Positions 12,700-64,000 of a stretch of DNA of 64,000 nucleotides are shown one piece after another. Position 1 is the stretch's first letter; every line of letters begins with the position of its first letter. The DNA comes from Cenococcum geophilum. Taxonomy: Eukaryota. The notes under the pieces are model-generated. The model did no database searches. It worked only from the letters and a program-made list of their open reading frames with translations, and was not told where the DNA came from. The position numbers and the translations under genes were made by a program. The stretch lies in the NCBI GenBank assembly GCA_050273025.1, contig CP158635.1, positions 1,922,001 to 1,986,000 on the forward strand. Reading direction: 5' to 3'.

Positions 12700-15185
12700 A
12701 TGCCCTTCCCATATAATAAGCCGAAGGAAAGCCTAAGGCATAAACTTAGGCGTAAGTATGGGCACAAACTTAGGCAGAAACCTAGATGGATACCTAAACG
12801 TCCGCCTATCCAACAACGCAAGCCACCAGCGCAGCTAAAATATTCGGCTGAGCATTACGAAAAACTCCGCGAAGAATTTAAGAAGATAGGTCTTATAAAG
12901 AAAAATTATTCACTAGTAATAAAGAATAATATAAACGAAATTTCAATACGATAGTTAAGGTAAGAGTGCTCTTATCTAAAATGCAATTCTATAGCTTATT
13001 ATTTAAGTTCTGCGAGAATATGAAAAAACACCCTACTTAACTTTTTAAGAATGCCTCAAACCATGACATTAAAATTTTTCTTTAGTGGATTGTAGATAAT
13101 TATCCATTACGGAAAAGGACTAGTATTTGTTAGAAATATAAACACTGGCGACAGCTCTATTAAAAATATACTAAGAAGGATTGGCCTAAAGACGTTAATA
13201 AAGAAATTAATAACGTATGGAAATCACTTCAAATATTTATAAAATCCCGCTAACCATTACAGTATATTAACGGACTATTAACCAAGAATAATGGGCTTAA
13301 CATATCCACCAAGGAGAAGCCAGTAATGAATGTTGACGATATTTTTTGGGTTTTACATTATTACTGGGCTCGTAATACCTCTACATTTCTAGACGGGCGA
13401 CAGAGTCTATAACTTGCATTTTTAATACTTATCTATATATATACAGCATCTTGGCCGGGCGCATTAGTCTATATAAAGAGAAATGCGAAAGTAGTAACCT
13501 AATGCGCTCTTAAGACCTACAATAAGGATAGGGGAGTAGGAGATGGCATAAATAATAACGAAATTAACGATAGAGATAGGGATAACGATAGTGAAGACGA
13601 AGATAATAGCGAAATAGATAACCAATATAACGGAATTAGCGAAGGATCTAAGAAAAAGGACGAACCTATTAACACTTTATATTATAAATATGTTACACTT
13701 ATCCTCATTTAAGAGCCGGGGGCTAAACGGGACCTTATTACCATAGAGATTAATTTACAATTTACTAAAGGGTATAGACGGAATTCTAAACGGTAAGGCA
13801 TATATAACAAGTTTCTCTTTAATAAATGCTAAATTGGATATAGCAAGATATTTTATCTTTACAAGGTTAACGACCTAATCTTCAATCCAATAATTTATAT
13901 AATTGTCCTAGGAATTCTCAACAATACCTTTAAACTTAAATTCCAGACTATTAAGTAGGTTTTTATAGTTCGAGTTAACCCATATTAAACGACCTCACGT
14001 TTAAGATAGAAGAAAAGCTAGGAAAATAAACCAATATTTTAGTAAGCAATTACAACAGTAGATAGGATTAGAACTTTAGACAAGCCTATACCCTACTATA
14101 CTTTCCTCTACTATATTTAGCGGCTAGGCTTTATAGCCGGAATAATACAAATCTTCAATCCCTATAATATTCGGCGAGGAATAGGTAAAGCGGTTGACGC
14201 TATAGCAACCTAAGCTTAATTATAACAGGTTATGGGTTATAAAGATGCTAGTGTCTATTAGGCTTATATAAATGAGCGGATTTTATATAACGTTTAGGCT
14301 GCTTTCCTTGGCCGCCCTTCTACTAACGCACTTATAAAGTCCCTAACGTATATTAGTCGGGACATCGACCCGCGGGCTCCTAAAGCAGTTACAGATATAA
14401 TAAATAATTCTCTTAAAACTTATCTACTTATTATAGAGCTCCGTCAGCAGCGCGATGCCTTATCTAAAAAAACTAAAGAACTATACGGTACTTTTAAAAA
14501 TGTATAGGCACTTAGGAGTAAAGAGTATAAATTATATACATAAGCTGCATTAGAATTAGAAAAACAAAAGAAGGCCTTAAAAAGGGGGAAACGGAAGGAA
14601 ACATGGCTTAAATTTTTTAACAAAATCGAGACCGAAGATTTAAGGCGACAGCTTACGCTATTAGCTATCGGTCTACGCGAGGAAAAGTAGAAACTAGAAC
14701 TAGTAGAGCATAGTCCCGAACAAAAACGCGTTATTCAGCTCTTATGTAAACGTCTAACTAATCTTACAACATAAGAAAATTTTTAATATCGAATTAACGC
14801 AATTAAAGCCTTGCTTAATCTATGCCGGGTACTAGAACCTACAGTTAAGCGTAAGGTCATCCGTGATCGTAATTAGGGTATCCTTCCTACTCTAAAGCCA
14901 AGTCTAGAGCTAACGGTTAAACCTAAACTAGGCCCTATAAAGATTATAAATCAATAGTATCTCTTCTGCGCCTATAAGCTGGGAGTATATACCCTTTTCT
15001 ATTACCTATATAAAGTAAGGGAACATATCGAGAGGTAATATCTTCGTTTTTTCAAACAGAATGAACCAATCCTATATTTAGACCTATATTGCCACTTATC
15101 GGGAATAATACTCTTTAGATATAAGCATTTCAAAAACCATGTATTTATAGAGTATGGCGCTTCTCTACTAACTTATACCCTATAG
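12700..15185 (+). pseudogene. DUF3435 tyrosine recombinase (Starship captain), RIP-pseudogenised, 3 introns
   Basis: Spliced translation (introns ~12960-13006, 13215-13262, ~13793-13842): KEKPVMNVDD..HYYWARNTSTFLDGRQSL*LAFLIL..YTASWPGALV, then FTKG, PYNIRRG (14160-), QVMGYKDASVY*AYINER..AAFLGRPS..RDIDPRAP, and a C-terminal Cys/His region ending HFKNHV. Catalytic R-K-(H/Y)xxR-H-Y layout is recognisable, with R>W at 13452-54 and H>Y at 14238-40. Confidence 0.92.
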
Positions 15186-18100
15186 TCCGTTACTCTTAGT
15201 TTTTTTCTTTTTCTTGTGGTATTATAGGAGGTCATATTCGTCCTATTTAGGAATTAGTAAAGTATATCCGGGATAGATACAGTTCGCCAATAGTTAGCGG
15301 TCGTTAGCTACAAATAACCCACTAAAGCACCTCTTTATAAGTAACTCTACTAGAGGAGGCGGGTTAAGCGGCCGTTCAACTAACTATATTATTAAAATAA
15401 AATACCTTGCACGAATTATTCAGGACTAGAATTTCTTTACAGCATAGTGTACTACCCCAAAATTTCTTTCAAAGTCAACCCATATAGCGCCAAGAATAGC
15501 TTCAACTATTAAAGCAAGTGCAGTTTTTAGCTCCTCGCCTTTTTGCAAGGGATTTTCCTTTAAATATATTCTTAGATTCCAATCCTTCGCTATTCTATAC
15601 AATTTTTCGTTTATACCAATGTCCCTTACTAGTTTATCTCCACTTTTTATATTTTGTTAGAAACACATTACCTATCTTATTATATCTATACCTATATCTG
15701 TTTTACTTAGGTACTATTTATTAAGTATATAAAGGCGTAGAACGGCATCACTAAGTAGTGCGAGACGTTTGTTTCCTTCCGTTAGCCCTTTAATATTAGA
15801 TCGTAATTTAAAAGCACCTGCTGTAAGAAAAACCTAGCCTAGCAAAGCCAAGTTTTTAAAGTAATAGTTAATTCTATCTTATAATAAGTCATAGTTCGAC
15901 ATTACTACTTTCTGCCAAAGGATATAGGGTAAGTAGGTTATAAAAATCCGCAACTTGCATATATATAACGGGAAACGTAACATGCTGTCAATCGGAAGAC
16001 TAAAAGATAAAAAAGAATAATAACTCTGCCTCATTGCAAGAGGCTCTAGAGCCTCACTATATACACTAAATAGGTGATAAAGACTAATATTAATACTGAC
16101 GTTGATTTGAAACTGTTACCTTATTGCTACTTAATCGACATTACTAATAGGTAATAAAAAGGTAATAGAAATAGTATAAAGTTATAAGGTAATAAGCAAC
16201 TAGAACAGGAATAGGATAATTATTAAAATCCGACTAAGTCCTAGCCACGTGTGGTAGATTTAGCTTAAGTACCCCATAATACCCCGCTTTAAAAGCGGAT
16301 TAACTCCCGGCTCTAAAGCTAAGAAACGGTGTTATATGCTAATGTTCTTTTAAAGGGGTTTGTGACATAGATATAGGGGTATGTCATGCCATAAGTTAGG
16401 CTGTATTGCGAAGTTCAATAGTCGTAAGAACTAGTTAGGGTTAGGGAATTTCGGTGCTCTTAAGTTAACTCAGTAACTCCGCCACACTAAACAACCTTTG
16501 CTTATTATTATAGCCGAGTTTAGCATACAAGACCAATGGAAGGGCCTGTGGTTAGTAATGTTAGTAAATACGGCGGTGCTTATTCGCCATAACGCTAAGC
16601 TTATTACCGTTATTAGTCCCAACGCTAACCACAGCCCACTTTCTCTACTTATACTTTCTCTATTTACTAACCTTAAAAAGTCGACCCCTACTTATTAAGA
16701 TGTGTCCGCTAAGGCGACCGCTAAGAGATCTGCTTATAGGTGGGGCAAAATCCCAGCCGTATAAGAACCCGACTTTACAACATACTATAAAAGGTTGAGA
16801 ATTAGCATTCCTTAACTACTAAAGATTAAAAAATATGTACTCTTATACTGTCTACCTGCCCCTTCTACCAAATAAGAGTTTAAAATCTTGATCGTCAAAT
16901 CGAGCCTACCCCGGCCTAGTGCCACTAAGCTTTATAGAGTCTACTATTAAGGTTCTAACTTCATAAATACCCATACGGATCCCTCGGTTATGGTTCGCTA
17001 TCCTTATCTTTATAGCAGCCGATAGTAAAGCCGGTAGTAGCCTTACACATAATTTTAGGATCGGTTTTCTATAGATATTCTATTAGGATGCTTAGTCTCC
17101 TACATAAAGCAACTTATAAATTTTAACAAAAGACAAAACCAGCCTAATAGAGTTCGGCTTTCATTTTCGCCTCTTTAATGCCTAGACAGAGCACTAAATG
17201 ACCAATGATAGCTTTTTTGATGCTCTTTAACTCGTTAGCTTTATACCACTTCTCGCATTAGTCCACTGCCTTATACCTTTCACTTAATGCACTGGAAATG
17301 GCTTTAAAAAGGAAACTTGGAAGAGAAGACAAACATATAACCCAAAAGTATTAACATTAGAAAGGACAGAAAGTAGAGGATTTTGTACGTCTTTAACTCG
17401 TTAGGCTTTTAAAGGCCTAGTTATACAACTATCTTGCTTTCTAAGGATTAAGTATTATAAATGGAAACACAACCTACAAGTAGCTAGGAGGAAAAAGGAT
17501 GTTTGGGATATAAAGAGATATCTTCTATACCAGTTCCACGCCTCGCCACACTATATAATGGAGCGCAGAATTTAGTTAGTGTGATATTCTGCTAGTTCGA
17601 ATCAAGTAAAGATAAGAGTGTTAGCGATATCAGGTGTCGGTAATAATAATAGCATAGGATTAAGTGGCCGAGTTATATACTAGCGCTATACAGTTATAGG
17701 AAATTGGAGTTGTCTATAGGCGCCAGCATATAAGGAGCCGTGCCTATTATTCCTGTAATAAATAATACACGCGTTTTATAATATCTCTTTATAATACCTT
17801 TATAATACGTAGAAGTCCATTCTCTTAAACCGTCTATTCGTGTCAAGTATAATATATAGCTGCTACATAAATATAACGAAGTGGTAATGTTAGCAGAATT
17901 TCATTACGAGGCTGATAAACGGAGCAGATCCTTTAAAGGTTGTTATATAGTAGAGAACGTAGGTATCTAAGCTGTTTGCGGGCGGTAGACTCTAGGGGGT
18001 AGGCGGAATAATTACTGGAGTAACATTCATTCCCAGCGTTAGTGATTTTGTAGTTTGTAAGACTGTAATAAAACACAGTATATATAATGCAATTAGCAAG

Positions 18101-18622
18101 CATAAGCGCGGACGGTACTCTTCTGTCTAATGTTATTAGGGTTTTAAGTTAGGCGGAATTACAGACACTATCGCCCCGCTATATAGTAAGCACGTAACCC
18201 CATTATTTAATTCCTAACGCCGGTAAGAGAGGAATAAGATTATAATCTAGGAGCGGAGCGAATTATGTTATGCTGCGAGGTAGCAAGGTTTAGCTATATA
18301 TAGCTAAAGACGAAAAGTTACGAGTTTAATCCTATTCTTAGACGTATTTAAAGCTTTTAAAAAGGACACGTTGCCAATAGTAAGGCCGGTTCGGGCGCCT
18401 ATAGCTAGGTATACAACACTTAACCAAATTTAGTTTAGCGGACCTTAGTTAAGAGCGAAGGAAAACTTCTAACAGCGCCCTAAGGCAGAGGCCGGTTTCG
18501 CTAACAACTATAGCTGTCCCTAAAAAGTATTTAATAAAATAGAAAACTTTACCCAAATCTCAAAATTTCTAGGATTATGTTGCCTGAGAAATTTGAGGGA
18601 CATTAAAATAAGGTATAGTGGT

Positions 18623-19124
18623 GATATTGTGGTTTTCTTATCTACTGCAACTCGCTTCCATATAAGAGCCTCCCACATTAAAATATCGTCTTTGTATATA
18701 AATTCGAATATAAATCAAATATAATCGTATGCGCATACTTTATTAACTCTATTTCTTTACTATAAGCCTAAGGCTTCCTCCTACTATATTCGGCAGATCT
18801 GCGTCGCCTTATACTATAGCTAGGCAGGGTGTAGCTAGTAAGGGGGGAGGCTCGTCGGATAATTAAGTACGGCATTCGCCTATCGCGCCCTTATTACACC
18901 GTCCTTTTAGCTCAATAGGATCGCAATTTAAGTAGGCGATACCTGTTAAGACTTAGTAATAAAGAGGCTAGTAAGAAATAGAGTTTTATATATTTTAAGT
19001 AAAAAAAGTACTGCGCATACAATTATATACGATTTATATTCGAATTTGTATACAAAGACGACATTTTAATATAGGAGGCTCTTATCCGGAAGCAAGTTGC
19101 GGTAGATAAGAAAACTACAATATC
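18623..19124. mobile_element. Non-autonomous MITE/foldback element with ~118-bp terminal inverted repeats
   Basis: 18623-18740 (GATATTGTGGTTTTCTTATCTAC..GTATGCGCA) is the imperfect reverse complement of ~19006-19124 (TGCGCATAC..GTAGATAAGAAAACTACAATATC). Mismatches are mostly transitions. No clear TSD. Confidence 0.8.
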
Positions 19125-19149
19125 CAATGGGGCACCCAAAACTGTAGCG

Positions 19150-19900
19150 ACCCTATACTGCTAACTTTTTCTCCTTGACCAGCTCCTTTGTGTAGATAGG
19201 TTCTTTCTTATAGGCCTATTTTTTCTAAAGGCGGACCTTTTTATCCCTAAAAGTTATCTGTTTGTTCCCCCCTAATTATTAAGAGGTTAAGTTTAAAGTT
19301 AATAAGCTCCCGTGCTCTTAGTAAATATATTCTTCTAGTAATCTATTTAGACTGGCGTTAAATTCACTCTAATCCTCTAGTCTAAATATAAGTTACCTAT
19401 ATAGGCTAATCCGCCATTTTATATCTAATTGGCGCGAGTGTAAATCGCTCTGTTCTTTTATACTATTAACCCTAAATATTTTATCAGCCCTCTATACCTA
19501 TCTAGTAAGCTCCTTAAGGTAGATAAAAGTAATTTCTATTATTTTACCTTCGCATTTATCCCGGTCCCCATCGCGCATAGGGATCCCTTAGTTACTAGAT
19601 CGCCTTCTAAACTCAAATCTATAAGATTTAGTTTAGTTATTGCTCTAAAATTTACACTAAGCTAAATTTTAGTATCTTTAATGGTTAAAATAAGTTTTAG
19701 CCTTTTTAATCTTGCGAATAAAGTTTCTAAATATATTAAGGCCGTGGAGGTAATAGAGGAATTGCCTAGGTGGAACCTCCGGGTGATTTACTATAGTTTA
19801 AATAGAAAAGTCATTAAAAAGTTTATAATAATCGGCGAGGATAATTTAATTATAAATATCTTTAAGAATATTAATACTTAAGATACGGTAGATTGTATTA
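19150..19900 (-). pseudogene. Hypothetical protein relic
   Basis: Minus-strand frame with protein-like composition (VNHPEVPPRQFLYYLHGL; GIPMRDGDRDKCEGK) broken by RIP-type stops. Family not recognised. Confidence 0.3.
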
Positions 19901-20581
19901 TAGGAATAGAGCGGCAAAGAGCAGGATATATAATAATATTAATTAGAGAAAGAGTACGAAAGTAGGTACTAAAGCGTTTAGCACTAAAGGAAAAGGTAGA
20001 GATACTAAGAAGGATTAAAGACTATTAGGAAGAGTTAGAATGTTAATAGCTAGATAGGATTTTTAAGGAATATGTTAAGGTCAAGAGATTTCCAGAGCAT
20101 TACCTAAAAATAATAAAGAAATGCGTAGTGTATAAGGAAGGGTATTCATTAGGGGAGTTAGTACTAACAGCAGACTACTAAAAGCATAGCTTTTATAACA
20201 GATGCCGTTAGAAGGATAGAGTATACCTAAAGTATAAGGAGGAGGAAAGCAACCGTGGCTTAGAACAGTAGCTTTTATCCGCTAATACCTTAGCCCTCTA
20301 TCTTCTGCTAGGTGCTAGTTTTAATCTTTATCTCTTATATATATAAGAGAGTATATTATATAAATAAATAGTATTATTAAAGTAAGCGTATATATAATTA
20401 TCACTTAAAGGGAAATTATCCATAAACCATTACAAGCGTTCGGATATTGTTGGCTAAAACAGTATATAACGCCGCTAATAACTAAATGTTCCGACTTTAG
20501 CTTAACACTCTAAGGACTTAAAAGGAGGGGAAAACTAGCCCACTCCTGCCATTCCTTAAAAAGCACTCTTAACCATTAAAA

Positions 20582-21478
20582 ATGTCTATACTTTATCTAA
20601 CCATCGAATTAATTCTCATAATAGCGGAGTATCTTAAACGCGTATGCGACGTCAATGCTCTCGTCATTACAGGTCGTCACTTCTACTATATATTAAATAA
20701 TGAGCTTTACAAACGCGACAGCAGCTCCGCAATGTACTAGGCAGCAAAGTTCGGGCAGGCTAGCACCGCTTAGAAGGCTGTTTTATTTATTAACGTTAAC
20801 GACCTTATTAAGCCCTTACTGTTGGCCGCGGAGGAAGGCTATATAGATGTAGTTCGCCTGCTACTGGAACGGGGCGCGCCTATTAACACGCTAAGAGAAG
20901 GCAAAAGCGTGCTCTTAGAACTTTCGTGGAGAAGTAACGCAGAAATCGTTAAACTATTGCTTAAGTATAGGGCCGAAGTCAAGCCTGCCAATAGACGCAT
21001 CCCACTAAACGCAGCCATTTCCTATGGCTAAAAAGAGATTATATATATACTATGGGATGCTAGAGCACGACCAGACCCCTTTATACAAGAGGCAGCTATA
21101 TATAACCCGGTTAAGATTACTTTTATTTAACTATTACTTAAAAAAGGCGTCATTCTTCGCAAAGAGGACTTTAAGCCACTTCATTTCGGCTCGCGACTTC
21201 GCCCAAAATAGAAAAAGGCTATTATAAACCTACTACGCCGCGAACAAATAAAAAGAGTTAGTAAGTGCTAGGTCGAGCTAGATTCCCGGGCTTTACTTAT
21301 AGCATATACGTAGTTTCGAGATTCGTATTACTAGTATTCTAAAAATCACAACTATAAAGCTAGCAAGAAGTTAAGGATAGAAGTATAGCTATATTGCCAC
21401 AGCCTCTTTACTAAAGAGCGAGACAAGGGTACCTGCGATTTATTAGGAAGGACTAATATAACTCCTAAAGTTCAATAG
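20582..21478 (+). pseudogene. F-box-like N-terminus plus ankyrin-repeat protein
   Basis: MSILYLTIELILIIAEYL..DVNALV..FYYILNNELY followed by ankyrin repeats PLLLAAEEGYIDVVRLLLERGAPIN, AEIVKLLLKYRAEV and IPLNAAISYG. Several TAG/TAA stops. Confidence 0.85.
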
Positions 21479-21799
21479 ATCGACTCTCGGCCAATAATAT
21501 TAACTTAAATTAGCTTGCTATTAACAAAGACTGCTTATACCATATATATATTATTATATAACCGGTGAATTTAGTTTAGTAGTTGTTTAGGTGGATATAA
21601 AAAACCTAAAAGCTACCTAAATGCTACATTATAATAGCTATTGCTACCTTTTCGGCGAGGATATAGGGATAGGGTATAAACTTCGATCTATTTTACATCT
21701 CTCTTAAATAAAGTACACTTTTATACTTAGCTAGGCGATATAACAGCTCCCTATACTTACAAGCGGGCCTCCTAATTATTTTGTTACTCTTAGTTAACC

Positions 21800-22961
21800 T
21801 TTGTAGTACACCCTTCCAAAGCTCCGCAAGTTAATATCTATAAAGCCTAAAATCCCCAAAAGAGTATGTAGTTTTTAATCCTTCTCTTAAAGTCTTCTTA
21901 AACTTTTATAAGCTTCTTAATAAAGCTTAGTATCCTTATTTATAGAAAATTTCTTCCATCTAAATCTAGCCCTCCTATACTTTCTCCCATTCTAACTATA
22001 TCTTAGGTCTTAAAGCTTCTAGGTCAAGCTGATTACTATATCGCAACCGCCCAGCTCTGTCTAGAGTAGTAGTTTTCTTTACCTCCCTAGGAGACTTCTG
22101 GTGTGTAGGAGACTTCTAGCGTATAGAAGATTCCGTAAAAGGGATAGGAGCGTCAAAGTCCTCTTTAATAAGGATTAGATGATCTACGTAATTATCAGCA
22201 TATATACGGTATTCTCTTTTCACCTCTTCTTATATTTTAGTATACCTTTAGAAGATCTAAATAAACCTTAATAGTCGTTCCTAAGGTTTTGCTCTAAATT
22301 TAGGTATTACTGCTAGACAAGTTTACCTAGCTGCTTATAATCTTCTATATCTATTTACTCCTCTTTTATAGACTTTAGTTAGTATTTATTAGGGCTAACG
22401 TAGAAGAGCGTGCGTTATATTACCTTCGTTAGAGTAAACTTCCATAGTATTAGTGCAAGTATATAGCTCAGTCGTGTTTTCAGAGCCAAAACCTTCTGCA
22501 GGCACGTGCCATCTAAACTCCTTTATTATTTGGCCAGCCATTATTATAGAAGTATTTGCCGTTTTAGAGAAGTAGCTAGAGTAGTAGAAGATCTGTTCAA
22601 ATTGGGTATTATATACTTAAACGTCCTCTGGCATGATTTCGTCAATAAAAGGTTTAGGGTTAAGAGAATCGGTTATAGCCAAGCCTTGCCCGCCACTAAT
22701 TAAGAAATGCTTTAGGTGGGATATAGGGGACTTACTTACAAGCTCCGTAGCCGCTGGGCCATTAGTAGTAAATATTACAGAAATTACGTAAGTCTCTCTA
22801 CTTAGAGTTTCGTCGGCTTTAGATCCTATAAAGGTATCTTTAAACGCAAAAGGAACAGGACTAGCAGAATTAAGTACGGAATCTGCCTATGCTAACTTTA
22901 AACGAGTGGCTTCGGAGATGGAGAAATGCTTAGGAGGATATTCGAAGTTGGAATAATCCAT
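21800..22961 (-). pseudogene. Hypothetical protein relic with intron
   Basis: ATG at 22961 (MDYSNFEYPPKHF..GPAATEL), a GTAAGT donor at ~22739, then a continuing frame (KPFIDEIMPEDV..EFRWHVPAEGFG). Family not recognised. Confidence 0.4.
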
Positions 22962-34509: not shown

Positions 34510-34712
34510 CGCTAGCGACTTAGTCAATTGAGGCACGAGTATAGCAGGAAGGACGTACGCAAGCCTATATAATTAGATTGTCTATTAACGAGGATCTAAA
34601 GCTAGAGAAAGGAAAGGAGAAGAATAGCAGCGCCGCTTAAAGTTTTATATAATCCTCTAGTTACGTAACCGCAATCTACCGCAATCTACCGTTTTCTGCT
34701 AGTACTATAATA
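34510..34712. mobile_element. Solo LTR related to the Gypsy LTR at 4668-4894
   Basis: Direct sequence similarity to 4668-4894. Flanked by TACTC (34505-09) and TACTT (34713-17), a 5-bp TSD with one C>T. Confidence 0.85.
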
Positions 34713-47344: not shown

Positions 47345-47387
47345 AATTATAGGTTATAGAGGAATTAGCCAGTATTAAATCTCTTTA

Positions 47388-48460: not shown

Positions 48461-48941
48461 ATATCTTTTCATGATTTACTATAAATTCCGCGTTCTTCCA
48501 AAAAAAATTCTACACGCTCCTAGGTAGAATGCCTTAAATCAATCGAAGTTTAATTCTAGAGCTGCTCAAGGTGATTTATATATTGTCGACCTAAATCGGA
48601 CTTGTTTTACTACCGTCTTACTTTAGTATAATATTAACTATCTAGTTTGACTTAGGAGTCTCTAAGTATGTAGATATATATAATAATCAGTATTAATCCA
48701 TATAAGGTGTAGCAGGCTTTACAAGATAATTTAAATATTATCCCGTGCAACTATATATAAAAACTTAGAAAAGAATATATACTAGCGTCTATATATTGCT
48801 TAGCAGTGTCCATCTTAGCAACGCACAATGCTAAGACCTCCTGCAATATTCGCGAATATCGAACGCAGTCACTACGTGGCTAATTCGCTTTTCCCACCCG
48901 CCATCCCTTACACTCAGTATGCATTATATATAGATAGCGCT

Positions 48942-49134
48942 TTAAGGCAATTCTTTAGCAGGTGCTAGGAACTAGCAAAACCGCTAAGAACCCGCCTTAG
49001 TGCGACTACCACAGTTAGATAGTTTTGCAGCCATAGGCTTGCGGTCGGGGATATCTGGTCACTTTAGGGCAAATCCTTAGCAGATTTAAGTGCTAGGTAC
49101 TAGCAAAACCGCTAAGAACTAGCCCTAGAGTGAC
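48942..49134. repeat. Imperfect ~65-bp direct repeat pair
   Basis: GTGCTAGG(A/T)ACTAGCAAAACCGCTAAGAAC occurs at ~48962 and ~49090 with similar flanks. Confidence 0.8.
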
Positions 49135-49199
49135 CTTATAGCCCTGCGTCTCCCAATTATACGGTTAAAATCAATATCCCCTCACGTAACTGCGATAGA

Positions 49200-52100: not shown

Positions 52101-54701
52101 AATGGCTCTCCCTGACCTCTCTGCAGGTCCATTTTGAGCAGGAGTATCTGGTGTCGATTGCTCAATGACACCTCCGTTAAGCTGGATGAGGTTCTTTACC
52201 CTGGCGCCTACACCTTGCTCCTTATCCATATGCCAAATGCGGATACCTCGAGCATCAAATTTCTTCGCAAATGCTATCATCGATTCGAAGAGTGGAAACA
52301 GCGTCTCTTGCTTATGGTTCTTGATGGGAAAGGCACGATGGTACTTCGTGTAGTCACACCAAAAATGAGCTACACATGTATCTCCATTGAACCCGTCTTC
52401 TTCCATGATGACATCAAAGTGTACACGTTCGAAAGGGTAGGTTCCCTTTGCGGATATTCTGCGAGATGTCTGCTGTGTCATCTTTCCGAGAACACATGGT
52501 TCACAAAGTGGTACACCGTACGGAGTTCTTCCTCTGTCCGTCTTGACCACCTTGACCCCGTCTGCCGCAGTCGGCAGATGATCCACTGACTCCATATCGC
52601 AGTGTAGTAAGCGCTGATGCCATACTTTGTCATATGCTGAGGTCTTAAAGAATCTGGTGGACGTAGCGTAGGCAGTAGGAGTAGGTGGTACGCAGGCGAT
52701 GGCATTAATGAGGTAGAGACCTCCGTATTCCGTGAGGTTGCCGAACAGGCTTCCGTCATCTTTGTAGCGCAGATGGTTCGTAGATTGGTCCATAATTACT
52801 CCAACCCTGCGGAGCTTTGCTGCGGATATCAGATTGGTATGAAAATACGGAGCGTACGCTACGTTCCTTAATGTCAGATACCGAGTCAGACGTTGTTCGC
52901 CCACCTCAATGGCCAAGTTGATATCACCGTATCCATGGATTTCTGCTCCAGAATCTCCAGCCGTTGCTGTGGACATGCATGGCTTGAGGTCACGGAAGTA
53001 TCTGATGTCGTTGCAGAAGTGGGTGTCTGCCATAGTGTCATACCCCCAGGCGTTGATCAAAGACAGATCCGGATGTTCCTGCGATGATGACGATGAGTAG
53101 GATGTTGTTACAGCAGCTGCTGTAGCTCGGGGCCTGTCCAGATCCTCAATCTTTTCAGCAGAGGCTGGAGACGTCCTTGACCTAGGGCCTTCCTTCTCGA
53201 TCTGCTTGACTCTTTTGTCATAATACTGCTTGTTTGTCGGGACCTTGAGCCATTCCTGACACCTCCGTAGACACTCGTCATTCGGTACAAAGTTCGGACC
53301 TCGGAGAGACTGAAATAGCTGCTTGCAATTCCTTAACTTATGGGGTAAACCACAAGCAAAGCACTTTGTTTCAGGTGATTGAGAAGGTGCTGGGGTGGTA
53401 GACGTCGTAGGATCTGCAGACGGCTGCCCTGATAGTGTAGCATGGGCGTTACGTCCCGTATTTGGATGCTTGTAGAGGAGGTTAAATTCCTCAATCATCG
53501 TCGACATTTCGAGCTTCTCTGACCTCTTCGCTACCTTCTGGATGAAGGCATGGTACAGAGCTGGACAGATCTCCTCACAGTCCTGGACAAAGGCTCGTAC
53601 AACGCTGCTTTCCGTTGCCTCTATCAGCCCTTCCTCTAGCTCTTCGCCGTTCTGTATGATGGTGATATGAAGCTGAAGCCATGATTCCAGAGTCTGACGT
53701 TTAGGCCCTTGTTTCCTTTTTTTGAGATCGTCCAATACCATCTGCTGTAGCGTAGCTTGAGATGGCTTTGCTACCTTCCTTAACTGTCTTACAATCGAAT
53801 GTGGTGTGGTGAGGTTCTTGAGATACCCTGAGAAGTTGGTGCCCACGGTGGCATGCAAAAGTGCTGCGAACGTGTGGAGCTTCTCTTCCCGCTTTAGGTA
53901 GTCCTGTCGTTGTAGCTTGTAGAGCTCGAAGAGCATTCTCTGTGTCTCTAGAGATTGCTGAGGTTGTTGTTCTTGTTGACTCGATGACCCAGGTGTAGCT
54001 GTTCCAGTAGACGCTGGAGTTGCTGCTGGAGCTGCAGGGTCCGCTGCTGGTGCTGCAGGGTCTGCAGGTGCTGCTACAGGTGCTGTAGGAGCTGCTGCTA
54101 TCGAAGGTATGGCTGGCTCAGTGTTTTGCTTGATTTCGTTCTCCGTCTTATCTGGGTCGACATAGTCCCAGATCTTCGCAAAACTTGCTTCTCGACGGAT
54201 AAATTGAAACCATATAGGCCAGTCTTTCTGGGTTAGCAAAAGAGGGTTCGTAGAGTCCTTGGTTGCCATGGTGGCTCTTGTTTTGAGGTTCTTTTGAGGT
54301 TGCGTAAAGAGACGCGCTTACGCGTAAGGCACGCGATATTTCGTGACGAACTATGCTCAAAGAGGCTTAGTGGTAGTCGTCTGGCCACTGAGATCTCCCT
54401 GGTGCTCAGAAGGTTACCGGGCTTATAACTTTCAGCCAGGCAGGTATCACGAAATGACTTAAGCTGGCTGGTAGGTAGAGACACAGAATTGTACGAGTGA
54501 TCTGTTCTATTCAAGGTGGCTCTCGAGGGTCTATATATACACGAGGAAGATGCTAGAATAGGAAAGGAGGGAGGTACAGGCAACAGAGATACGTACTAAG
54601 ACATACGAAATACGAGGGTAAGCACTAGGGTAGTCTTTACATAGGGTACTAGGCATCAAAGACAATTGTAATACGGTCGAAAGCTACCTCCGTGGCCAAC
54701 A
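49200..54701 (-). mobile_element. Ty1/Copia LTR retrotransposon (Copia-2), full length and apparently intact
   Basis: 272-bp LTRs at 49200-49471 and 54430-54701 differing at 2 positions. TSD ATAGA at 49195-99 and 54702-06. PBS-like GTTATAAGCCCGG and PPT TAAGGGGGTG. Confidence 0.98.
49569..54269 (-). CDS. Copia gag-pol polyprotein, 1566 aa, uninterrupted
   Basis: CFACGLPHKLRNC knuckle; protease WGYDTMADTH; WHQRLLH..CEPC; integrase HFD..MDKE..NGPAER; RT FKARLVVRGD..FFYVDDI; RNase H SDASF..STTEAE..CDN..ADGLTK. Confidence 0.97.
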   Translation of the reverse strand: MATKDSTNPLLLTQKDWPIWFQFIRREASFAKIWDYVDPDKTENEIKQNTEPAIPSIAAAPTAPVAAPADPAAPAADPAAPAATPASTGTATPGSSSQQEQQPQQSLETQRMLFELYKLQRQDYLKREEKLHTFAALLHATVGTNFSGYLKNLTTPHSIVRQLRKVAKPSQATLQQMVLDDLKKRKQGPKRQTLESWLQLHITIIQNGEELEEGLIEATESSVVRAFVQDCEEICPALYHAFIQKVAKRSEKLEMSTMIEEFNLLYKHPNTGRNAHATLSGQPSADPTTSTTPAPSQSPETKCFACGLPHKLRNCKQLFQSLRGPNFVPNDECLRRCQEWLKVPTNKQYYDKRVKQIEKEGPRSRTSPASAEKIEDLDRPRATAAAVTTSYSSSSSQEHPDLSLINAWGYDTMADTHFCNDIRYFRDLKPCMSTATAGDSGAEIHGYGDINLAIEVGEQRLTRYLTLRNVAYAPYFHTNLISAAKLRRVGVIMDQSTNHLRYKDDGSLFGNLTEYGGLYLINAIACVPPTPTAYATSTRFFKTSAYDKVWHQRLLHCDMESVDHLPTAADGVKVVKTDRGRTPYGVPLCEPCVLGKMTQQTSRRISAKGTYPFERVHFDVIMEEDGFNGDTCVAHFWCDYTKYHRAFPIKNHKQETLFPLFESMIAFAKKFDARGIRIWHMDKEQGVGARVKNLIQLNGGVIEQSTPDTPAQNGPAERSGRAISERARTAVIEAKLPVDLWPEFVLLAVFLLNRTPIESIDWKTPFEMLYKRKPWLAGLRVAGSLTYVLIKHGIPRKAKFEPRAQIGYLVGMEASNIYRIWIPTTNRIIRSRDVRIDESKRYQSPETPEHLIISQAQKDRFQQVQDLLDNLQDGSKDWMENFDEELDVRLPHLASIDVTPTSKSIQISTEELRQLPTPELTPEPSIPSASSAPQQSPSTVASTPQTSSTTQSSSEVTEPPFVDPTPRSEPQTTAGSSSGGERRSGREKRPTAKKKDMPNQDLRRRAFAVQNSDGDDIINPDTTPLAHAFYTAATKTYGHRDDFPPPPKSWKEMLNHRYATEFKAAAHTETKALMGKHTWDEVRLVKKVHRLPTMWVFTYKEDSDGFITRFKARLVVRGDLQAVSQEEVKAITAAYRTFRLLCALIAGFDLDVIQIDAVNAFVNALVDDEVYLIPPKGVDLPPGFSLRLRKAMYGLRKSPKLWFLEMSAALQSMGLKAVPDEPCLYVHPTEPIFVFFYVDDILIVGHPSCRQQMEDILKQLQDRFEIRKIPQFTSFLNTRVVRDRQKGKLWLCLDQYLEKLVSVYHLEYLKPSATPLSGQELTPYEGEATPNQMKGYQRRVGSATYPASTTRPDVAFSVSKLAEFLQNPSPAHLAEINRLLTYLYDTRYLALEFSTITPHEINQVLKAASDASFADDAPTRRSSQGFLISLFNGPIAWQATRQKAVTKSTTEAELLALSHVGGEVEHMVRIFKAIRFDPEQDVIINCDNQQSVRIVTKETPTVSTKLRHVDIHQFWLRQEVQNGSFVVQWVPTSEMAADGLTKALSKQNHQKFVDVVGLRDIRHLVN

Positions 54702-54799
54702 ATAGATAGACCCAAGCTCTAATACTTTAATGTTAAATAGAAGATTAAGAATAAGAACTCTATCGAATTATAAGAGGCTCTACAGTCTTATAAGTAGCT

Positions 54800-56480
54800 T
54801 TAGGGGTGCTTAAGGCCCCATGACTATTATTCTTTATAATACTTAGCTTGGATATGGGAGTCTACAATACCGAGCTCAGGTAAGATGCCATATTCATTAA
54901 GACAGTTAGTATAGAATTGCTGAAGGAGATATTGGCTGTCGCATGTGTATCCCGAATTTCTGGTATTCCACCGTGTGGCCTTAATGTCTACCCCCTAACG
55001 GTTTTCCAGGAGCATCTGATATAATCCTAGCAGAGGATCGAGCTGGGTCTCCTTCTGCCACTAAGCCATGACCTACAAATCATCCCGGAACTGCTTTAGT
55101 GTTTTAGCCGACCATCCTTCTCTCTACGGAAATAGTATAAATAGGGATTTATTATCCCCTATTCTGCGGAGTTCTAGCACCACCTAATTCTCCATATATC
55201 AATATCCTCAAACCTTATACTTCTCTCTGGCCGCCTAGACACGTAGGGTCTCCACTCTACGTAACTAAGCATATGCCTCCTTCTACTAGGAGGGTTTAGG
55301 GTACAAATGTACCGCTCCGAGCCCAGAAATGAAACATTAAACTTAACTTGAATAAAATTAGAGGATGTTATAGAAAGGAGTTAACTAAGGGACGGCTATA
55401 TTAAACATTAATTGCACACAAACCCCACTCTTTGCGCTCTTTCCTTTAATTACCTTAAGTGTTTCGCTGCCTCAGTCGTATTCGTCTAGCCTATCGTAGT
55501 CATATTCGTGCTAAAAGGAAAAGGTTAGTAACATCCCTAGATGCTATAATCCCTTCCTATCACGTAAGACCTAGATCGTCTTATATAATCCTTACAGGTT
55601 ATAGTTATATTGATAATAGTAAAGATCGGCAAAGAACTGCCGCAACTAAATATAAGCGTCATGCTCCTTATCTTCTATAGTCTTATAGACAGGATCGGGT
55701 AAGTCCATTTCATCTATGTCTTTATCCCAATAGTTGTTCTAACTAGACATATCTTAGTTAAATAAGAACGCGGTTCCGTTAAAGGTATACCCAGCGGATG
55801 CATTTAGGCCCTCGCTATATTCCATAGAATGAACCTTTTCTTAAGGATACTTTTCCATCAGGGCATTAAATTCTTTAGACTTAGATATATGTTGCAACAC
55901 TCTTATATTTATCTTAAATTTTCGAAAGCTTAATTTTCGGACTAGCGACCATATTAGAGAAGTCTACTGTACACCATAGCTTAACTTCATCTCACTAAGC
56001 ATTCTAAAAATGCCTTTAATATCTGCTTAGATATAGAAGTCGAAATCAGAGTGTAGCTCAGTAGAGCTAGGCACGAAGTAGTCTGTAGCGCGAGAACCTA
56101 ATATATACGCGTTACTCTCGGCCATTGCGTCAAAAAGGCCCTTAGGATTAGTAAAGTAGGGTCTTAAGTAACGCATAGGGTTCTTTCTCTCCCTATACAC
56201 CTCCAACGCGAGTATCGGTCTATTTACCGTACCGTCCTTACCTTTTATATACAACGCAAGCGTAAAATTCTTATAGTCTGAGATACTTATAACCTTATAG
56301 AGTTCGCAGAAGCCGTCTAAGTGTAATATATTAATGTTTGCGGGTAGAGCGTAACGACATCGTAAGATTAAGCGGAGGATTAAAGGAAGAGAAAGACTTA
56401 ATAGCCAATGGCAAAATATTAATATTAAGACTTCTATTATGTTTACTCGATCTCGAACGAGATTAAAGAAGTCGTTAAAT
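54800..56480 (-). pseudogene. Uncharacterised fungal protein with a nucleotidyltransferase-like GS..DxD motif
   Basis: ORF 56027-56254 contains AYILGSRATDYFVP..SDFDFYI. Downstream frame gives VCVQLMF..IL*FYSS*V*CFISGLGAVHLYP. Boundaries approximate. Confidence 0.6.
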
Positions 56481-56559
56481 AGTATTATTTTCTTAATCCT
56501 GCAAATTATATTAGAATTAAATATATAAAAAAGGAATATAGCATTGGGATTAAAAATCT

Positions 56560-57135
56560 TACGCAGGTAATATAATTAAATCTTTAATATTTATCTAAAT
56601 ATATCTAAGGCACTAGAAACTAATAACACTATTACTATATATATTTAACTACCTTATCTACCTTACCTACCTTACCCACCTCACCTGCCTTATCTGCCTC
56701 ATCTGCCTCGCGCCCTAGTATAGTTACATTACCCCCCCCTCTCGAAAAAGCCTGCCCTTAGGTGTTGTCCGAGCTCCTTATCGTCGTCTAAATTGTTATA
56801 ATTGTCCAACCCTTCTTCCTAGCATTTAATCCAGTTTTCTAGTTTGCGTGGTAGTCTAGGGAGGTCTAGTTAGGCTAGGTGGAAATCCCGTAGCTTATAG
56901 GGGGAATACTTAAAATTAGATACAGGATACCATTCTAAGTCTTCGTTATGGCCTACCTAGCTTATATAGTATTTCAAGATATTACAGTCCTTTTTAACTG
57001 CTAGGATTTCTTCAACTTCCTATTCCTCGTCCTCTATAATCTGGATTAGCGGGGGGAGGCCGTTATACTATCTAGATAATGGGTTATCTATGGCCTTTTG
57101 TAGTCGATCTAGGGAGAAGATAGGGGAACTCTAAA
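56560..57135 (-). mobile_element. 3' fragment of a chromodomain-bearing Gypsy element with PPT and LTR start
   Basis: Minus strand PPPLIQI.EDEE*EVEEILAV..LKYYIS*VGHNEDLEWYPVSNFKYSP..LRDFH is a chromodomain. It is followed by purine tract GAGAGGGGGGGG (56732-43) and TGTAAC at 56728. The LTR's far end was not identified. Confidence 0.85.
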
Positions 57136-58059
57136 TTTTAAGGAAGTTACTCTTAATAATAGACATGCCTTTTGTTTTTAAACCCAGCTAAAACGCCTTA
57201 TAGAGACTACCTCTAGGAGTATATAGTATCTATACTTAGAGTAGGTACTTTAGAATAAGGGTCATTGTAGCCATAAAGAGTATAGATTAAGCTTAAATAA
57301 GCTAACTAAGGGGACGAGGTGGCTACTAGGGAAGAAATTATAAGCGTAAAAAAACTCCAATTAAGGCGATATTAGCAGCTAAGATAATACATATCGGCAT
57401 AGCTATAAACTACAAATTCTCAGCCATCTAAGTATCTATAATTGCGGAGAGGGTGGTTAAGTAGGGTAATAAAGGTGACTAAGATAACGACTAAACTTCT
57501 TTTATCCCTTATACCACCCCTATCCCCTATATTATCCTCACCCCCTACACCACCCCCATCCCCTATATTATCCTCACCCCCTACACCATCCTTACCCCCT
57601 ATATTAACTACTACCCTAAAAAAGCTAAGGGCATCGCAGAGCCTCTAATTACTAAATTTGGTGTCTCTGGATATTTTAACATTCTATTAATCGGATATCC
57701 GTGCACCGATTATAAGAAAAGAATAAGGACTCTGTCTATTAAATATAGCTCTAAGAGCCTCTATATATATATAAGAAAGGTATAGGAAATAAGAACGAGA
57801 AGGGGGAAGGGGGGTGGTAATAGAAATAAGGGGTAGGTGACCAAGTTAATGACTAAGTCAATAACTAAGTCAATAGAGGTAGCTAAGTCGGTGACAAGAT
57901 AACCTAATTCAGGTCGACACATTCATATATACAATTCTGCCGTAGCTGTAGATTAAGACTATATAAATCATAAGTAATATACAATTATGTTTTACGAGAG
58001 AATTTTATAATAAAACTATTTAAGGGAGGTTGTTTTATATAATTAAGAGGATATACTAA

Positions 58060-58982: not shown

Positions 58983-61217
58983 TTACCTCAGCAGCAACAC
59001 AATCATGGCTGCGAAGGCTAGTATCCTAGCAATTATACCAAGACTAACCCTAATACTCTTAGCCTTTACTATATAACTCTGTAAAGAATTACTAAATAGA
59101 GTGCCGTTATTTGGCACTTATATCTGCGTAGTGGTAAAAGTGGTATAATACTTATTATTAGAGGAAATAATAGTACGGAAAGAAGTAACTAGCGTATTAG
59201 GTTTATCTAAGATCTATAAGCTCGTCCAAGCTCCGGAGTAGCTCCTACCTATAGCTATACTTAATAGAACAATTTCCGAAGTTAATATAGGAAAGATACT
59301 AAGAAGCTAAGTACTTAAGGACCCTAAATCTATTATTAAGGTAGCTAGTATAAAATTTGTCGTGCTGCTCTAGTCCATCTAGTCCTATCTAGTTAAACCT
59401 AGTAGTAAAACCGCAGCTATTTCTTTGGCTAGAATTACAGAACTTAAGGAAATTAAGGAACTAGGAGCGACGTCTAAAGCGCTTAAAAATTGTCTAAGTG
59501 ACCATAGCGTTATCGGGGAAGTTGGAATTATCCGTATAAGCGTATATATAGTAGCTATAACTTTTATAATATAAAAAGAAGAGATAGAGGCAAAAATAGA
59601 GGCCGTGGGATCCAGAGATATATATGGAAGTCCGATAGCAGAGCTTATAGGATTTGAGATGGATATAGTGTTGGTTGGAACTAAAATAGATATAGTACTA
59701 GTAAGAATTGAGATAGATATAATGCTATTAGAAACTAAGGAAGATGTAACCCTAGTAGGAATTAAAATAGATATAGTACTGGTGGGAACTGAGGTAGATA
59801 TAGTGCTAGTAGAAACTAAAATAAATATAGTGCTAGTGAGAACTAAGACGGTTTTGGTGCTAATAAAAACTAAGATAAATGTATTGCGAGTTAGAACTAA
59901 GATGGCTATAGTACTAGTAGGGGCTGAAATAGATGCGTAGTTTGTAAAATTTGGGGTAGGTATAGTATAGCTAAACGTAAAAGTATTGCTAGCTATTATA
60001 AGGCTCTCCCTATTTACAGGCCGTATTAATAGGGAAGAGAGCAGCTATATAGATTTAGAAAGGGTGGTTAAAATGCTTAAATATCTGTTTAAACTTGGAA
60101 TTAAGCTTGCAGACTAGGAAGCCCCATTAAGAAAATCTAGAGAAGTATATATTAACTTAGATATCTGGCTTAAATCCAATATAAACGGCAGTGCTATAGA
60201 GCGTAATAGTCCGTTAGAGGGTTGTGTAATAGTTATAACCGTCCCTAGGGAGTTAACGGATTTTAAAGTTAGATCCGTTATAATGCTTGTGAAAGAGGTC
60301 TAGGGATTGGCTTTAGTATAAGCTACGGTAGCGCTTTAAGGTTCTATAGGGCCATTACTCTTTAAGGGAATTGGAAGACTGTTTAAAGTTTAAACACCAT
60401 TTAAAATTTCTATAGTAGTTGTAATTGCCCCTGCGGAATTAATGGATATTAAAGTTAAGTCATTTCTAGTCCGTATAAGAGAGAGCTAGGATAAGGCTTT
60501 TATATAAGTTATACTAAGGCTTTAAGAGACGATAAAGCTAGTGCCCTTTAAAAGAATTAAAAAGCTTTCTAAACGTAATAATCCGTTTAGATTTGCTATA
60601 CTCGTCACCGTCCGTTCAAGGTTAGTAGGTATTAAAGTTATGCCTATCCTACTGCCGGTAAGGGAAAGCTGAGATTCGACCTTAATATAAATTATAGCAC
60701 TGCTCTAAGGTCCTATAAGACTAGTAGTTATAAAGAGGACTAAATAGCTCTTTAAAAGTAGAAGTCTATATATATTTATAATCGTTATTACTATTAATAG
60801 TAAGGTAGTAGATACCAAACTTAAGTCTATCCTAGTGCTTGTGCGAGAATAATAGGGTCCAACATTAGAAGAGGTTATGATGGTTTAAAGCCCTATAAGG
60901 CTAGTGCTCTTAGGGAGGATAAAAGAGCTTTAAAAATCTACAGAACTATCTAATAAGCTGGTAATAGTGTAAATACCATCTTCGGAAGTCAACTTATTGG
61001 TCTATATTTCTTAGGTTACGGTCTATGGCGAAGAATAAGTAGCGAAGTCGCCAGGTAGTGTTAAAGATGTTCTTTTTATAGTAGTATTTTGCCACCTAGG
61101 AGCCCGTGCAATTATTATAGCTATAGATAACGTTACTTTAACATTATTATAACCTAAGAAGAAGTAAGGGACGAGAAGAAGCAGAAGACCCACAATAAAA
61201 TTCGTTGCTATCTTTAT
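58983..61217 (-). pseudogene. Secreted Ser/Thr-rich, probably GPI-anchored cell-surface (mucin/adhesin-like) protein
   Basis: (M)K(M)ATNFIVGLLLLLVP signal peptide, Ser/Thr-rich body, 27-bp repeats STISTSVPT, and a hydrophobic C-terminus SIRVSLGIIARILAFAAMIVLLLR*. Confidence 0.7.
59655..59940 (-). repeat. 27-bp tandem repeat (~10 copies) encoding Ser/Thr-rich units
   Basis: Plus-strand units like GAGATAGATATAGTACTAGTAGGAACT. The antisense reading gives the spurious ORF 59605-59940. Confidence 0.85.
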
Positions 61218-62519: not shown

Positions 62520-63244
62520 GGCATTATAGAGTTTATAAAAAAGATATGGTAGAGTACGACAGAATGAAAGAAAAGACAGAGCTTATTCCTCTTCTAGTGG
62601 AGATATATTTTAAAACCGGCCGAATTATAGAGGCTAAAAAGTACTAGGTGCGGCTAGTAGAGACAATTAGGAAACTAAGAGGGCCGGAATATAGGGACAC
62701 TTTAAAAAGCAAAATCTACCTAGCTTATATCTATATTAAATAGGAACGGCTAACCAATGCTAAAGAGCTACTGCTATAGTTACTGGAGACTGGTAATAGG
62801 GTATTAGGCCAATACCATTTATAGATATTAAGTATAATAGCCGTCTTAGCAGAAGTCTATTGTTATTAAAAACGGCGAACGGAAGCCGATAAGCTGGAAA
62901 CTTAAGTAATAGAGATAAGAAAGAGAATTCTAGGCCTATAGCATCCTAATACTCTAAAAAGTATAGAAGAGCTAAGTTCTAAATACCGTATAAAGAACCA
63001 ACTTCTAAAAGCGGAGGAGCTATAGAAACAAGTAGTTAAGATAAAAAGAGAGATTTTTGGCAATGACTATCTAGACACTGTTAGCAGCATAAGTGGCTTA
63101 GCATTTATATTCTATAAGTAAGGACGAAAGGAGGAGGCTTAAAGGTTGAATATAGAGGTGGTAAAGACAAGAATTAACGCATAGGGCCTGGTGCATTTAG
63201 ATACGCTTATAAGTATGGCCAAACTTTTAGCCACCAGTTACTGA
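62520..63244 (+). pseudogene. TPR-repeat (kinesin-light-chain/TPR_10-12 type) protein region, NLR-sensor-like
   Basis: About five 42-aa repeats: GPEYRDTLKSKIYLA..AKELL, LGL*HPNTLKSIEELS..KAEEL, FGNDYLDTVSSISGLA..GRKEEA and GLVHLDTLISMAKL. The N-terminal part (~62000-62520) was not identified. Confidence 0.88.
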
Positions 63245-63466
63245 AATAGCCGATTTTAAGTCAAATAGCGAAGAAAGGAAAGTATATAAGTAGATATCTT
63301 AGGAGTATTCGCGGCAGAACCCCGCCGGAGGCATTAATAGTAGAATTAAGCATAGGTAATATAGTAAAAGTAGGTAATAATATATTTACTGTCCCTACTA
63401 TAGAGTAGATAAATAATGAAACTACTAAATAATATCAATGTCACTATCTAAACTATCGCAGTGCCC

Positions 63467-64000
63467 TTAATGTTTTGGCAAGCCGGCATACTCTCCCCCT
63501 ATAAACTTAAGGAACTTTTTTATATCCTCTTTAGATGGAATCTGGCAAAGTTCATCCCTATAGAGTTGTAGCTTCTTGCTATGATTAAGTGATTTATCAA
63601 CTGCGCCTAAGATTATCTTAGGCAGAAGATCGTATCCGGGGCCGTTTATTCGAATTTTATAACTAACCGGGGTATAATCTACAAAGTCCAGGTCTTTTAA
63701 CAGCAAGTCATCTACACCCTATTATTTCGATAGTTGACCTAGTTCGCCGCCGATTGGAACCGTAAATATCCTAAAAAGATCCTATTAAGTCCCATTAGTA
63801 TTATATAGTTTATTATACTCTTTAATGGGGCTAACTACACTCTTAGCCGCGAGTTTAATAATTAACATCGCTAATTATATAATGGCCTTAGGGACGAAGA
63901 TAATATGCTCTATTAGGACTGTAGCTGTTTCCGCGGCTGCCTAAAAGGATTGCGTAGCGCTAGCGAAAATAGACTTAAACCGAGCTAGGAGAACGAACGC
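63467..64000 (-). pseudogene. 3' end of a hypothetical gene entering from beyond the window
   Basis: ORF 63467-63706 extends upstream through RIP-type stops (FRIFTVPIGGELGQLSK**GVDDLLLKDL). Confidence 0.35.

Follow-up and report, generated by a model that had tools for sequence, protein, structure and literature searches.

Starships are transposons in which a DUF3435 tyrosine recombinase, the captain, stands as the first gene and moves together with kilobases of unrelated passenger genes (PMC9156397, PMC11162782). Their upstream boundary is described as lying ‘usually within 2 kb’ of the captain, and at most 7 kb from it (PMC11162782); the median captain length given in the published text is 812 aa. 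DUF3723 and patatin-like phospholipase (PLP) genes are conserved companions, as are those for ferric reductase (FRE) and NLR proteins, and OCH1 is a recurrent Starship gene (PMC9156397). Here we describe a locus of this kind in a 64,000-nucleotide stretch of DNA from Cenococcum geophilum (contig CP158635.1, positions 1,922,001 to 1,986,000 of the forward strand), which is called the window below and is numbered from its first letter. From position 12,172 onward the window is probably, judging by its sequence, one dead copy of a multi-copy, captain-first, Starship-type tyrosine-recombinase transposon. The family is recognisable and its 5′ end can be mapped to the base, even though every copy has undergone too much repeat-induced point mutation (RIP) for gene callers. 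Two steps were sufficient for this: reading the frames through their stops, which gave the captain, and finding relatives of the captain in metagenome contigs, which gave the shared terminus.

Several published definitions and elements bear on such a locus. Regions in which DUF3435 is co-located with DUF3723, FRE, PLP or NLR genes, without demonstrated target-site duplications, have been termed ‘Starship-like’; ‘degraded’ regions hold companion genes without DUF3435, and full Starships require flanking repeats (PMC9156397). Members of the Hephaestus family integrate at TTAC(N7)A, and their termini carry target-like sequence (PMC10104507). Decay by RIP is also on record. The captain of Wallaby is a pseudogene with many premature stops, and RIP divergence is seen between copies (PMC11162782); Aristaeus contains RIP-diverged regions (PMC10104507), and a degraded Horizon and one degraded copy of Tangerine have been reported (preprint 10.1101/2025.11.25.690456). 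Long terminal repeat (LTR) elements nested in Starships have already been described (preprint 10.1101/2025.11.25.690456; PMC9156397). Cryptons are elements of conventional size (PMC11162782); DUF3435 repeats were first annotated as Cryptons, and DUF3435 captains form a clade apart from the Crypton recombinases (PMC9156397).

The captain relic and the shared 5′ terminus

All six frames of the window were read through their stops (one X per stop, in pieces of 12 kb or smaller) and scanned against Pfam. One forward frame matches PF11917 (DUF3435) over almost the entire profile (positions 1–417 of 418; E=2e-54, 185.6 bits; approximately 13,332–14,819). A sequence-only reading of the window had proposed a DUF3435-type tyrosine recombinase at this place and had named a profile search as the way to check it; the match bears the proposal out. 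The read-through protein also finds intact relatives in Halenospora varia (P0001, E=4.5e-75) and Pleurostoma richardsiae (P0002, E=9e-69), which themselves carry PF11917 and are 32–34% identical to the relic across 86% of its length. By tblastn, residues 2–575 of P0001 align with 13,074–15,140 in frame +3 (E=1e-84). Homology to the two relatives starts at 13,053 and 13,074 and reaches the C-terminal Cys/His motif of P0001 at about 15,185, and on the basis of Pfam and protein homology in one frame the captain relic, a DUF3435 tyrosine recombinase pseudogene, is placed at 13,053–15,185 on the forward strand. The frame may begin further N-terminally, at an ATG near 12,786. The gene had been described as spliced, which did not hold: compared with its intact relatives it occupies a single frame, with no gaps that need an intron.

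The captain is broken throughout. There are 30 TAA or TAG stops in its 711 codons, many of them at sites where the intact relatives have Q, W or R. Its catalytic motifs are recognisable in part, as had been suggested: IRRG is retained and so is the tyrosine of AY(I)N, but the first arginine is lost (TASRPG of the relatives reads TASWPG, Arg to Trp) and the histidine of QVMxH reads tyrosine. All 11 close-family captain loci that were examined are likewise broken, with a longest stop-free stretch of at most 132 aa and a GC content of 0.28–0.37, while distant captain relatives at a GC content of about 0.5 have open stretches of 300–360 aa. The relatives L006 and L007 are less damaged. Among the loci examined, no copy was seen that had escaped RIP and kept this gene order.

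Metagenome contigs, scanned with the captain alignment, yielded 47 loci that encode relatives, about twenty of which are 70–89% like the captain DNA of the window and AT-rich too. In L003, L007, L010, L019, L041 and L043 the first window position reached by blastn similarity is 12,171 or 12,172, and in L009 it is 12,181. TTAC stands at this terminus in 8/8 copies (the window and these seven loci), and in the window the 5′ terminus of the family is mapped to 12,172–12,215 on the forward strand, with TTAC at 12,172–12,175 followed by a conserved region that contains a near-palindrome at 12,188–12,201. Comparison of the eight copies (28 pairs) shows a mean pairwise identity of 0.28 in the 60 nt upstream of TTAC and of 0.85 in the 60 nt from TTAC onward. 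One exact end joined to eight different left flanks is the signature of a transposon terminus, and the seven metagenome contigs are other RIPped copies of the same element. The captain homology starts 0.9 kb inside this terminus, and the captain reads inward (+). The start of the element, which had been put at 12,700, moves accordingly to 12,172.

The likeness between copies extends past the captain. L003 9109–12139 corresponds to 12,171–15,185 of the window at 89% identity, and L003 12526–22136 to 15,362–24,975 at 90%; the stretch 12,171–24,975 (+) is in this way shown as one repeated unit, made up of the captain plus at least 9.8 kb downstream. The limit at 24,975 is the end of the retrieved L003 DNA and so a lower bound. 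Judged by the comparison with L003, at least 12.8 kb of DNA moves with the captain, and this DNA includes two passenger relics, which are 77–88% identical at the amino-acid level in L003. The first, at 15,474–15,791 (−), is RNase III-like (Ribonucleas_3_3, E=1.8e-6; its 28.6 bits are under the Pfam cut-off of 35) and has 74–88% amino-acid identity in L003, L041 and L009. The second is an ankyrin-repeat relic at 20,810–21,067 (+) (Ank_2, E=3.1e-10), with 88% amino-acid identity in L003. In L041 collinearity reaches 19,155, interrupted between 15,985 and 16,329 by an insert of 5.8 kb that is not flanked by LTRs. The captain DNA of L001–L003 is 88–89% identical to that of the window. The alignments indicate a mobile element at least 12.8 kb long that is of Starship type, has the captain first and carries a Hephaestus-like TTAC terminus.

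Contig depth is in keeping with a family of copies. In run X1 the summed contig depth is flat at about 250–480 over 12,674–20,000, compared with 25–46 for single contigs, and in both X1 and X5 it is flat over 12.7–20 kb except for one bin. The contigs differ from the window chiefly by transitions. Depth and transitions together fit several RIP-diverged copies, the summed depth not being a copy number. Run X21 has almost no cover over 12.7–15.3 kb and 16.7–18 kb at 85% likeness, but missing cover is not evidence of absence, and the run does not count as showing an empty site. Small shares (0.13 and 0.09) came from runs with the label ‘root metagenome’, from which no conclusion on habitat was drawn.

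The decay itself can be read from the composition. Most of the 64-kb window has a GC content of about 0.35, a TpA/ApT ratio of 1.4–2.0 and a (CpA+TpG)/(ApC+GpT) ratio of 0.35–0.8; over 12,030–49,194 the three values are 0.364, 1.52 and 0.65. An intact Copia retrotransposon nested to the right (see below) serves as an internal control, with values of 0.492, 0.92 and 1.08. The customary RIP index thresholds are 0.89 and 1.03, and the internal control is better than these quoted values. TGA is approximately ten-fold rarer than TAG among the trinucleotides of the RIPped region (141 vs 1,314), whereas in the intact Copia the two are about equal (135 vs 121). The in-frame stops of six relics (captain, DUF3723, PLP, an ~850-aa gene, and nucleoside 2-deoxyribosyltransferase-like (NDT-like) and TPR relics, all described below) are TAA or TAG in 121/121 cases, with no TGA. 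Mismatches to intact homologs were also tested for direction, as those explained by reverting C>T or G>A changes against those explained by the opposite change. Reversion explains 144/234 mismatches to P0004 (62%; opposite direction 33/234, 14%), 103/348 to P0001 (30%; opposite direction 30/348, 9%) and 129/413 to P0003 (opposite direction 36/413). Since the mismatches favour C>T/G>A reversion, the stops are all TAA or TAG and TGA is depleted, the decay is of RIP type and more than AT drift.

Just 6 stop-to-stop open reading frames (ORFs) of at least 150 aa occur in the whole 64 kb, and to call the element invisible to ORF calling was fair. Two islands at about 5.1–10.7 kb and 49.2–54.7 kb lack the RIP pattern, and both are Copia LTR retrotransposons. 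The view that the genes are all broken by RIP stops stands for the captain, DUF3723 and PLP relics but not for the 1,582-aa Copia ORF, which is intact and unRIPped.

Companion relics, possible passengers and resident retrotransposons

A DUF3723 gene and a patatin-like phospholipase gene had been pointed out downstream of the captain, and relics of both were found there. The DUF3723 relic at 45,533–46,893 (−) consists of two frame pieces with 16 stops, both matching PF12520: 45,533–46,546 (profile 179–508, E=2.5e-61) and 46,594–46,893 (profile 83–179, E=1.2e-9). The PLP relic at 41,886–43,913 (−) is full length; it changes frame twice and contains 24 stops. It is matched by P0003, a 666-aa protein with PF01734 (Patatin E=1.8e-9 by Pfam), at E=2.3e-26, and by tblastn residues 3–666 of P0003 align with 43,913–41,886 in three frame pieces (E=1.3e-102). 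The best PDB match of the relic is a patatin-type phospholipase (E=0.042). The two relics adjoin each other, 27–32 kb downstream of the captain and on the opposite strand.

Another relic is that of an approximately 850-aa gene, conserved in Dothideomycetes, at 26,385–28,921 (+) in two frame pieces. It has 26 homologs, the best being P0004 (66% identity, E=4e-241), with P0005, a hypothetical protein of Lepidopterella palustris, at 58%. By tblastn it covers 26,394–26,822 and 26,930–28,921, and it holds 40 TAA or TAG stops. Its family, of about 690–850 aa, has homologs in Lepidopterella, Mytilinidion, Lophium and several Pyrenophora strains, and no Pfam family was found for it. The Atlas look-alikes of P0005 are all reverse-transcriptase clusters, with scores of 0.86–0.89 (below 0.9), and are a lead only.

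Further along, a short stretch at 31,612–31,716 (+) gives a weak lead to a possible relic of an OCH1-like DXD glycosyltransferase (Gly_transf_sug at E=0.0018, its 19.4 bits being under the cut-off of 23). The NDT-like relic lies at 38,072–38,383 (+) (PF15891, E=2.2e-13 and 5.4e-14) and has a 41%-identical homolog beside a distant captain in L008. At the far right, a TPR repeat relic occupies 62,711–63,166 (+) (TPR_10 E=2.6e-13, TPR_12 E=3e-13). The region 22,398–23,975 (−), used as a query, found six short proteins of 36–114 aa that indicate no function and are probably ORFs on other RIPped copies. At 56,600–57,139 no chromodomain was supported by Pfam at E<=1; a likeness by eye at about 56,880–57,020 (−), followed by Gly/Arg-rich low complexity, leads to no claim.

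Some observations were made in passing. Two distant captain relatives appear to be intact: that of L028 has a DUF3723 homolog (35% identity) 6.4 kb downstream, at L028 17,697–18,683, and that of L008 has the NDT-like domain gene mentioned above 4.3 kb upstream, at L008 5,428–5,736. A 17-nt minisatellite of about 1 kb lies just beyond the DUF3723 relic (47,476–48,458), and an 18-nt tandem array at 45,233–45,484. A 27-nt array at 59,643–59,966 falls within an open frame at 59,385–60,044 (−), which is without a Pfam match and has a strong CpA/TpG asymmetry of opposite sign. Apart from two LTR pairs and these tandem arrays, a self-comparison of the window shows nearly nothing repeated. No Rfam families (hence no 5S rDNA target) and no tRNAs were found in the window.

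The nested Copia element occupies 49,200–54,701 (−). Its LTRs are 99% identical, a 5-bp duplication, ATAGA, flanks it at 49,195–49,199 and 54,702–54,706, and its polyprotein ORF at 49,572–54,317 (−) is intact at 1,582 aa (RVT_2 E=4e-36). It is certainly not cargo of the captain element. Because it has no RIP signature and its surroundings are RIPped, it was inserted after the surrounding DNA was mutated, and it looks young and possibly still active.

To the left, and outside the element, lies a RIPped Ty3/Gypsy retrotransposon (1–5,144 and 10,679–12,023, −; RVT_1, RT_RNaseH and Integrase_H2C2 at about 516–2,087), into which a second Copia is nested at 5,145–10,678 (LTR pair 97% identical, duplication TCTAT, Copia pol). 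In three runs there are contigs that connect 5,138 with 10,678; these are Gypsy copies that lack the Copia. The Gypsy family reaches a summed depth of 40,000–110,000 in run X1, against 25–46 for single contigs, and is apparently a repeat of enormous abundance in the source genome. At its right edge the summed depth of 40,000–57,000 (10,673–12,006) drops to 952 one bin further on, and from 12,674 it is about 300. The gap between the Gypsy edge and the TTAC terminus is 148 bp. A 176-nt piece of the Gypsy (4,671–4,844) recurs at 34,513–34,688 with 78% identity; no further pol relics of the two resident families, Gypsy or Copia, were found by tblastn.

Extent of the element and alternative explanations

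With somewhat less assurance than attaches to the Starship-type transposon itself, we would extend it through the PLP–DUF3723 pair at about 47 kb. Over 12.0–48.5 kb the RIP indices and the CpA/TpG asymmetry continue with no obvious break, and on the far side of the nested Copia they pick up again as far as about 58.5 kb: the sign of the asymmetry flips at about 12,000, after which it stays at or above approximately zero up to 48.5 kb and again over 54.5–58.5 kb. No retrotransposon pol relic or second recombinase was found in 15–49 kb, and no pol in 12.0–49.2 kb by Pfam or tblastn. Continuation to the window end at base 64,000 is doubtful. The sequence-only reading had taken everything from the captain to the window end as the cargo of one element, which is more than the sequence shows: collinearity reaches 24,975 only, no 3′ end was found, and a separate Copia sits at 49,200–54,701. 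The Starship reading as such fared better, with a sharp 5′ terminus in eight copies, at least 12.8 kb moving with the captain, and DUF3723 and PLP downstream.

A number of results weigh against this extended Starship-type element. Among the genes, no Pfam Patatin match at E<=1 was obtained in the PLP relic itself (41,234–42,996), no FRE was found anywhere in the window by Pfam, and no NACHT or NB-ARC domain was detected at E<=1 near the TPR or NDT-like relics. Since TPR and NDT-like domains occur here without NACHT/NB-ARC, an NLR is not demonstrated. Among the copies, the similarity of L009 to the window stops after 15,599, and in L041 and L009 the captain part is 74% identical to the window while the adjoining segment 15,255–15,985 is 85–89% identical. 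The latter contrast would reflect either two captain subfamilies on similar cargo or uneven RIP, making the family mosaic or unevenly RIPped. As for the ends, a RIP-tolerant scan of the window for an inverted copy of the 5′ end gave matches at noise level only; as the 3′ end may be beyond the window, this does not settle the matter. A scan of the window for the palindromic core motif gave 4 matches against 1.79 expected and no 3′ end; the best 3′ candidate, at 57,661–57,674, has a score equalled or beaten by 2.2% of random pieces, and no second TTAC junction or 3′ terminus was found in the window. An empty site was not recovered, the flank 12,024–12,170 being unmatched in the 47 loci.

Several of these points would also suit a shorter captain-led element of about 13–30 kb that ends between 25 and 41 kb, with the PLP–DUF3723 pair and the DNA to its right belonging to another degraded Starship or to RIPped repeats adjacent by chance. 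This we regard as unlikely. Collinearity is demonstrated to 24,975 only, PLP and DUF3723 stand on the strand opposite to the captain, L009 diverges as early as 15,599, and in so repeat-packed a genome nested and abutting elements are common. However, neither the strength of RIP nor the CpA/TpG asymmetry breaks off visibly between 12.0 and 48.5 kb, there is no other captain, transposase or pol relic in 15–49 kb, and DUF3435 together with DUF3723 and PLP makes up the published Starship-like signature (PMC9156397), all of which argue for the longer, Starship-type element.

The remaining contrary observations are found near 16 kb. Single contigs of run X14 join 16,056 to 12,030, and 5,378 to 16,066 on opposite strands, and no shared repeat accounts for these joints. 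A depth peak at 16,009–16,675 is present in all four runs, and a perfect 16-bp palindrome lies at 16,040–16,055. They would suit a compact, Crypton-sized unit of about 4 kb (12,030–16,056) with head-to-tail or circular junctions, the remainder being unrelated RIPped DNA. Such a unit is highly improbable and is contradicted by the collinearity of L003 to 24,975, which is unbroken across 15,362–24,975 (90%). L041 is collinear again over 16,329–19,155, the common 5′ end is 12,172 and not 12,030, the depth is equally flat on either side of 16 kb in X1 and X5, and the captains, as noted above, form a clade apart from Cryptons (PMC9156397).

It is barely credible that there is no mobile cargo element at all, only an AT-rich isochore or a segmental duplication of host genes, degraded by RIP and holding a recombinase pseudogene by chance: apart from the two Copia elements the window is mostly RIPped, transposon flanks included, and the ankyrin, TPR, RNase III-like and 850-aa relics are not transposition genes, but eight copies share one exact 5′ end beside unrelated upstream DNA, which a segmental duplication would not give, and the captain is in its canonical position with Starship companion genes present.

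Comparison with known systems

By analogy with described Starships, the DUF3435 captain would have recognised the element termini and a TTAC-containing target, and would have cut and rejoined DNA through its catalytic tyrosine, moving the whole element together with its passenger genes; the TTAC target preference and the mechanism of transposition are drawn from that analogy. Once several copies were present, RIP would have mutated every one of them during sexual cycles (C to T, G to A), filling captain and passengers with TAA and TAG stops and changing catalytic residues. The still-intact Copia inserted at 49.2 kb later. As the captain and passengers are full of stops and catalytic residues are changed, this copy is now incapable of moving or of expressing any of its genes. 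Its interest, the element being inert, is therefore historical (genome expansion and past gene traffic) and not functional. Surveys that drop pseudogenised captains would miss such fossil families, and their estimates of past Starship activity in RIP-proficient, repeat-rich fungi would come out too low as a result.

A more ambitious synthesis, which is speculative and on the whole improbable, would join these strands. A TTAC-terminated, Hephaestus-like Starship family would have built up many copies in a Dothideomycete genome bloated with repeats, and RIP would then have silenced it wholesale; the ~850-aa passenger (26.4–28.9 kb; no Pfam family, faint reverse-transcriptase-like features) would be an unrecognised Starship companion, and the head-to-tail contig joint in another strain a trace of recombinase-made tandem or circular forms.

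Like Cryptons, the element would be a fungal tyrosine-recombinase DNA transposon. Cryptons are not known to carry cargo, whereas this unit is at least 12.8 kb long with passenger genes, and its recombinase fits the DUF3435 profile from one end to the other. The likeness to the Hephaestus family (PMC10104507) lies in the 5′ TTAC: TTAC, the core of TTAC(N7)A, starts 8/8 copies. The hosts described for Hephaestus in the available text are Paecilomyces, Penicillium and Aspergillus (PMC10104507), while the host here, to judge from the names of the homologs, appears to be a Dothideomycete. In contrast with the published RIP-degraded Starships, as far as their available accounts go, the whole family is degraded, with 11/11 close-family loci broken and no active copy seen. 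Within the texts that could be consulted, no account of a wholly RIP-killed Starship family was found, nor, in full text, any account of a Starship captain from an ectomycorrhizal host; genome-wide supplementary tables may already list the region or the family.

The differences from full Starships are that only the 5′ end is mapped here, that there is no FRE and no proven NLR, and that all copies seen are dead. Because a direct repeat and an empty site are not demonstrated, the locus is formally ‘Starship-like’, with a mapped 5′ end, under the 2022 definitions (PMC9156397). The features of Starship membership found here are a DUF3435 captain, its place at the 5′ end reading inward, cargo and large size, and the companion genes DUF3723 and PLP, probably within the same element. 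As in the Starships of the available descriptions (PMC9156397, PMC11162782), the gene order opens with a DUF3435 captain that points inward from a precise 5′ end 0.9 kb away, and the relic of this captain, at approximately 711–800 codons, is close to the median of 812 aa. Kilobases of unrelated passenger genes move with it, with DUF3723 and PLP nearby; smaller transposable elements are nested within, and the whole has decayed by RIP. RIP-degraded Starships have already been published, and the locus adds another member to them, not a new kind of element.

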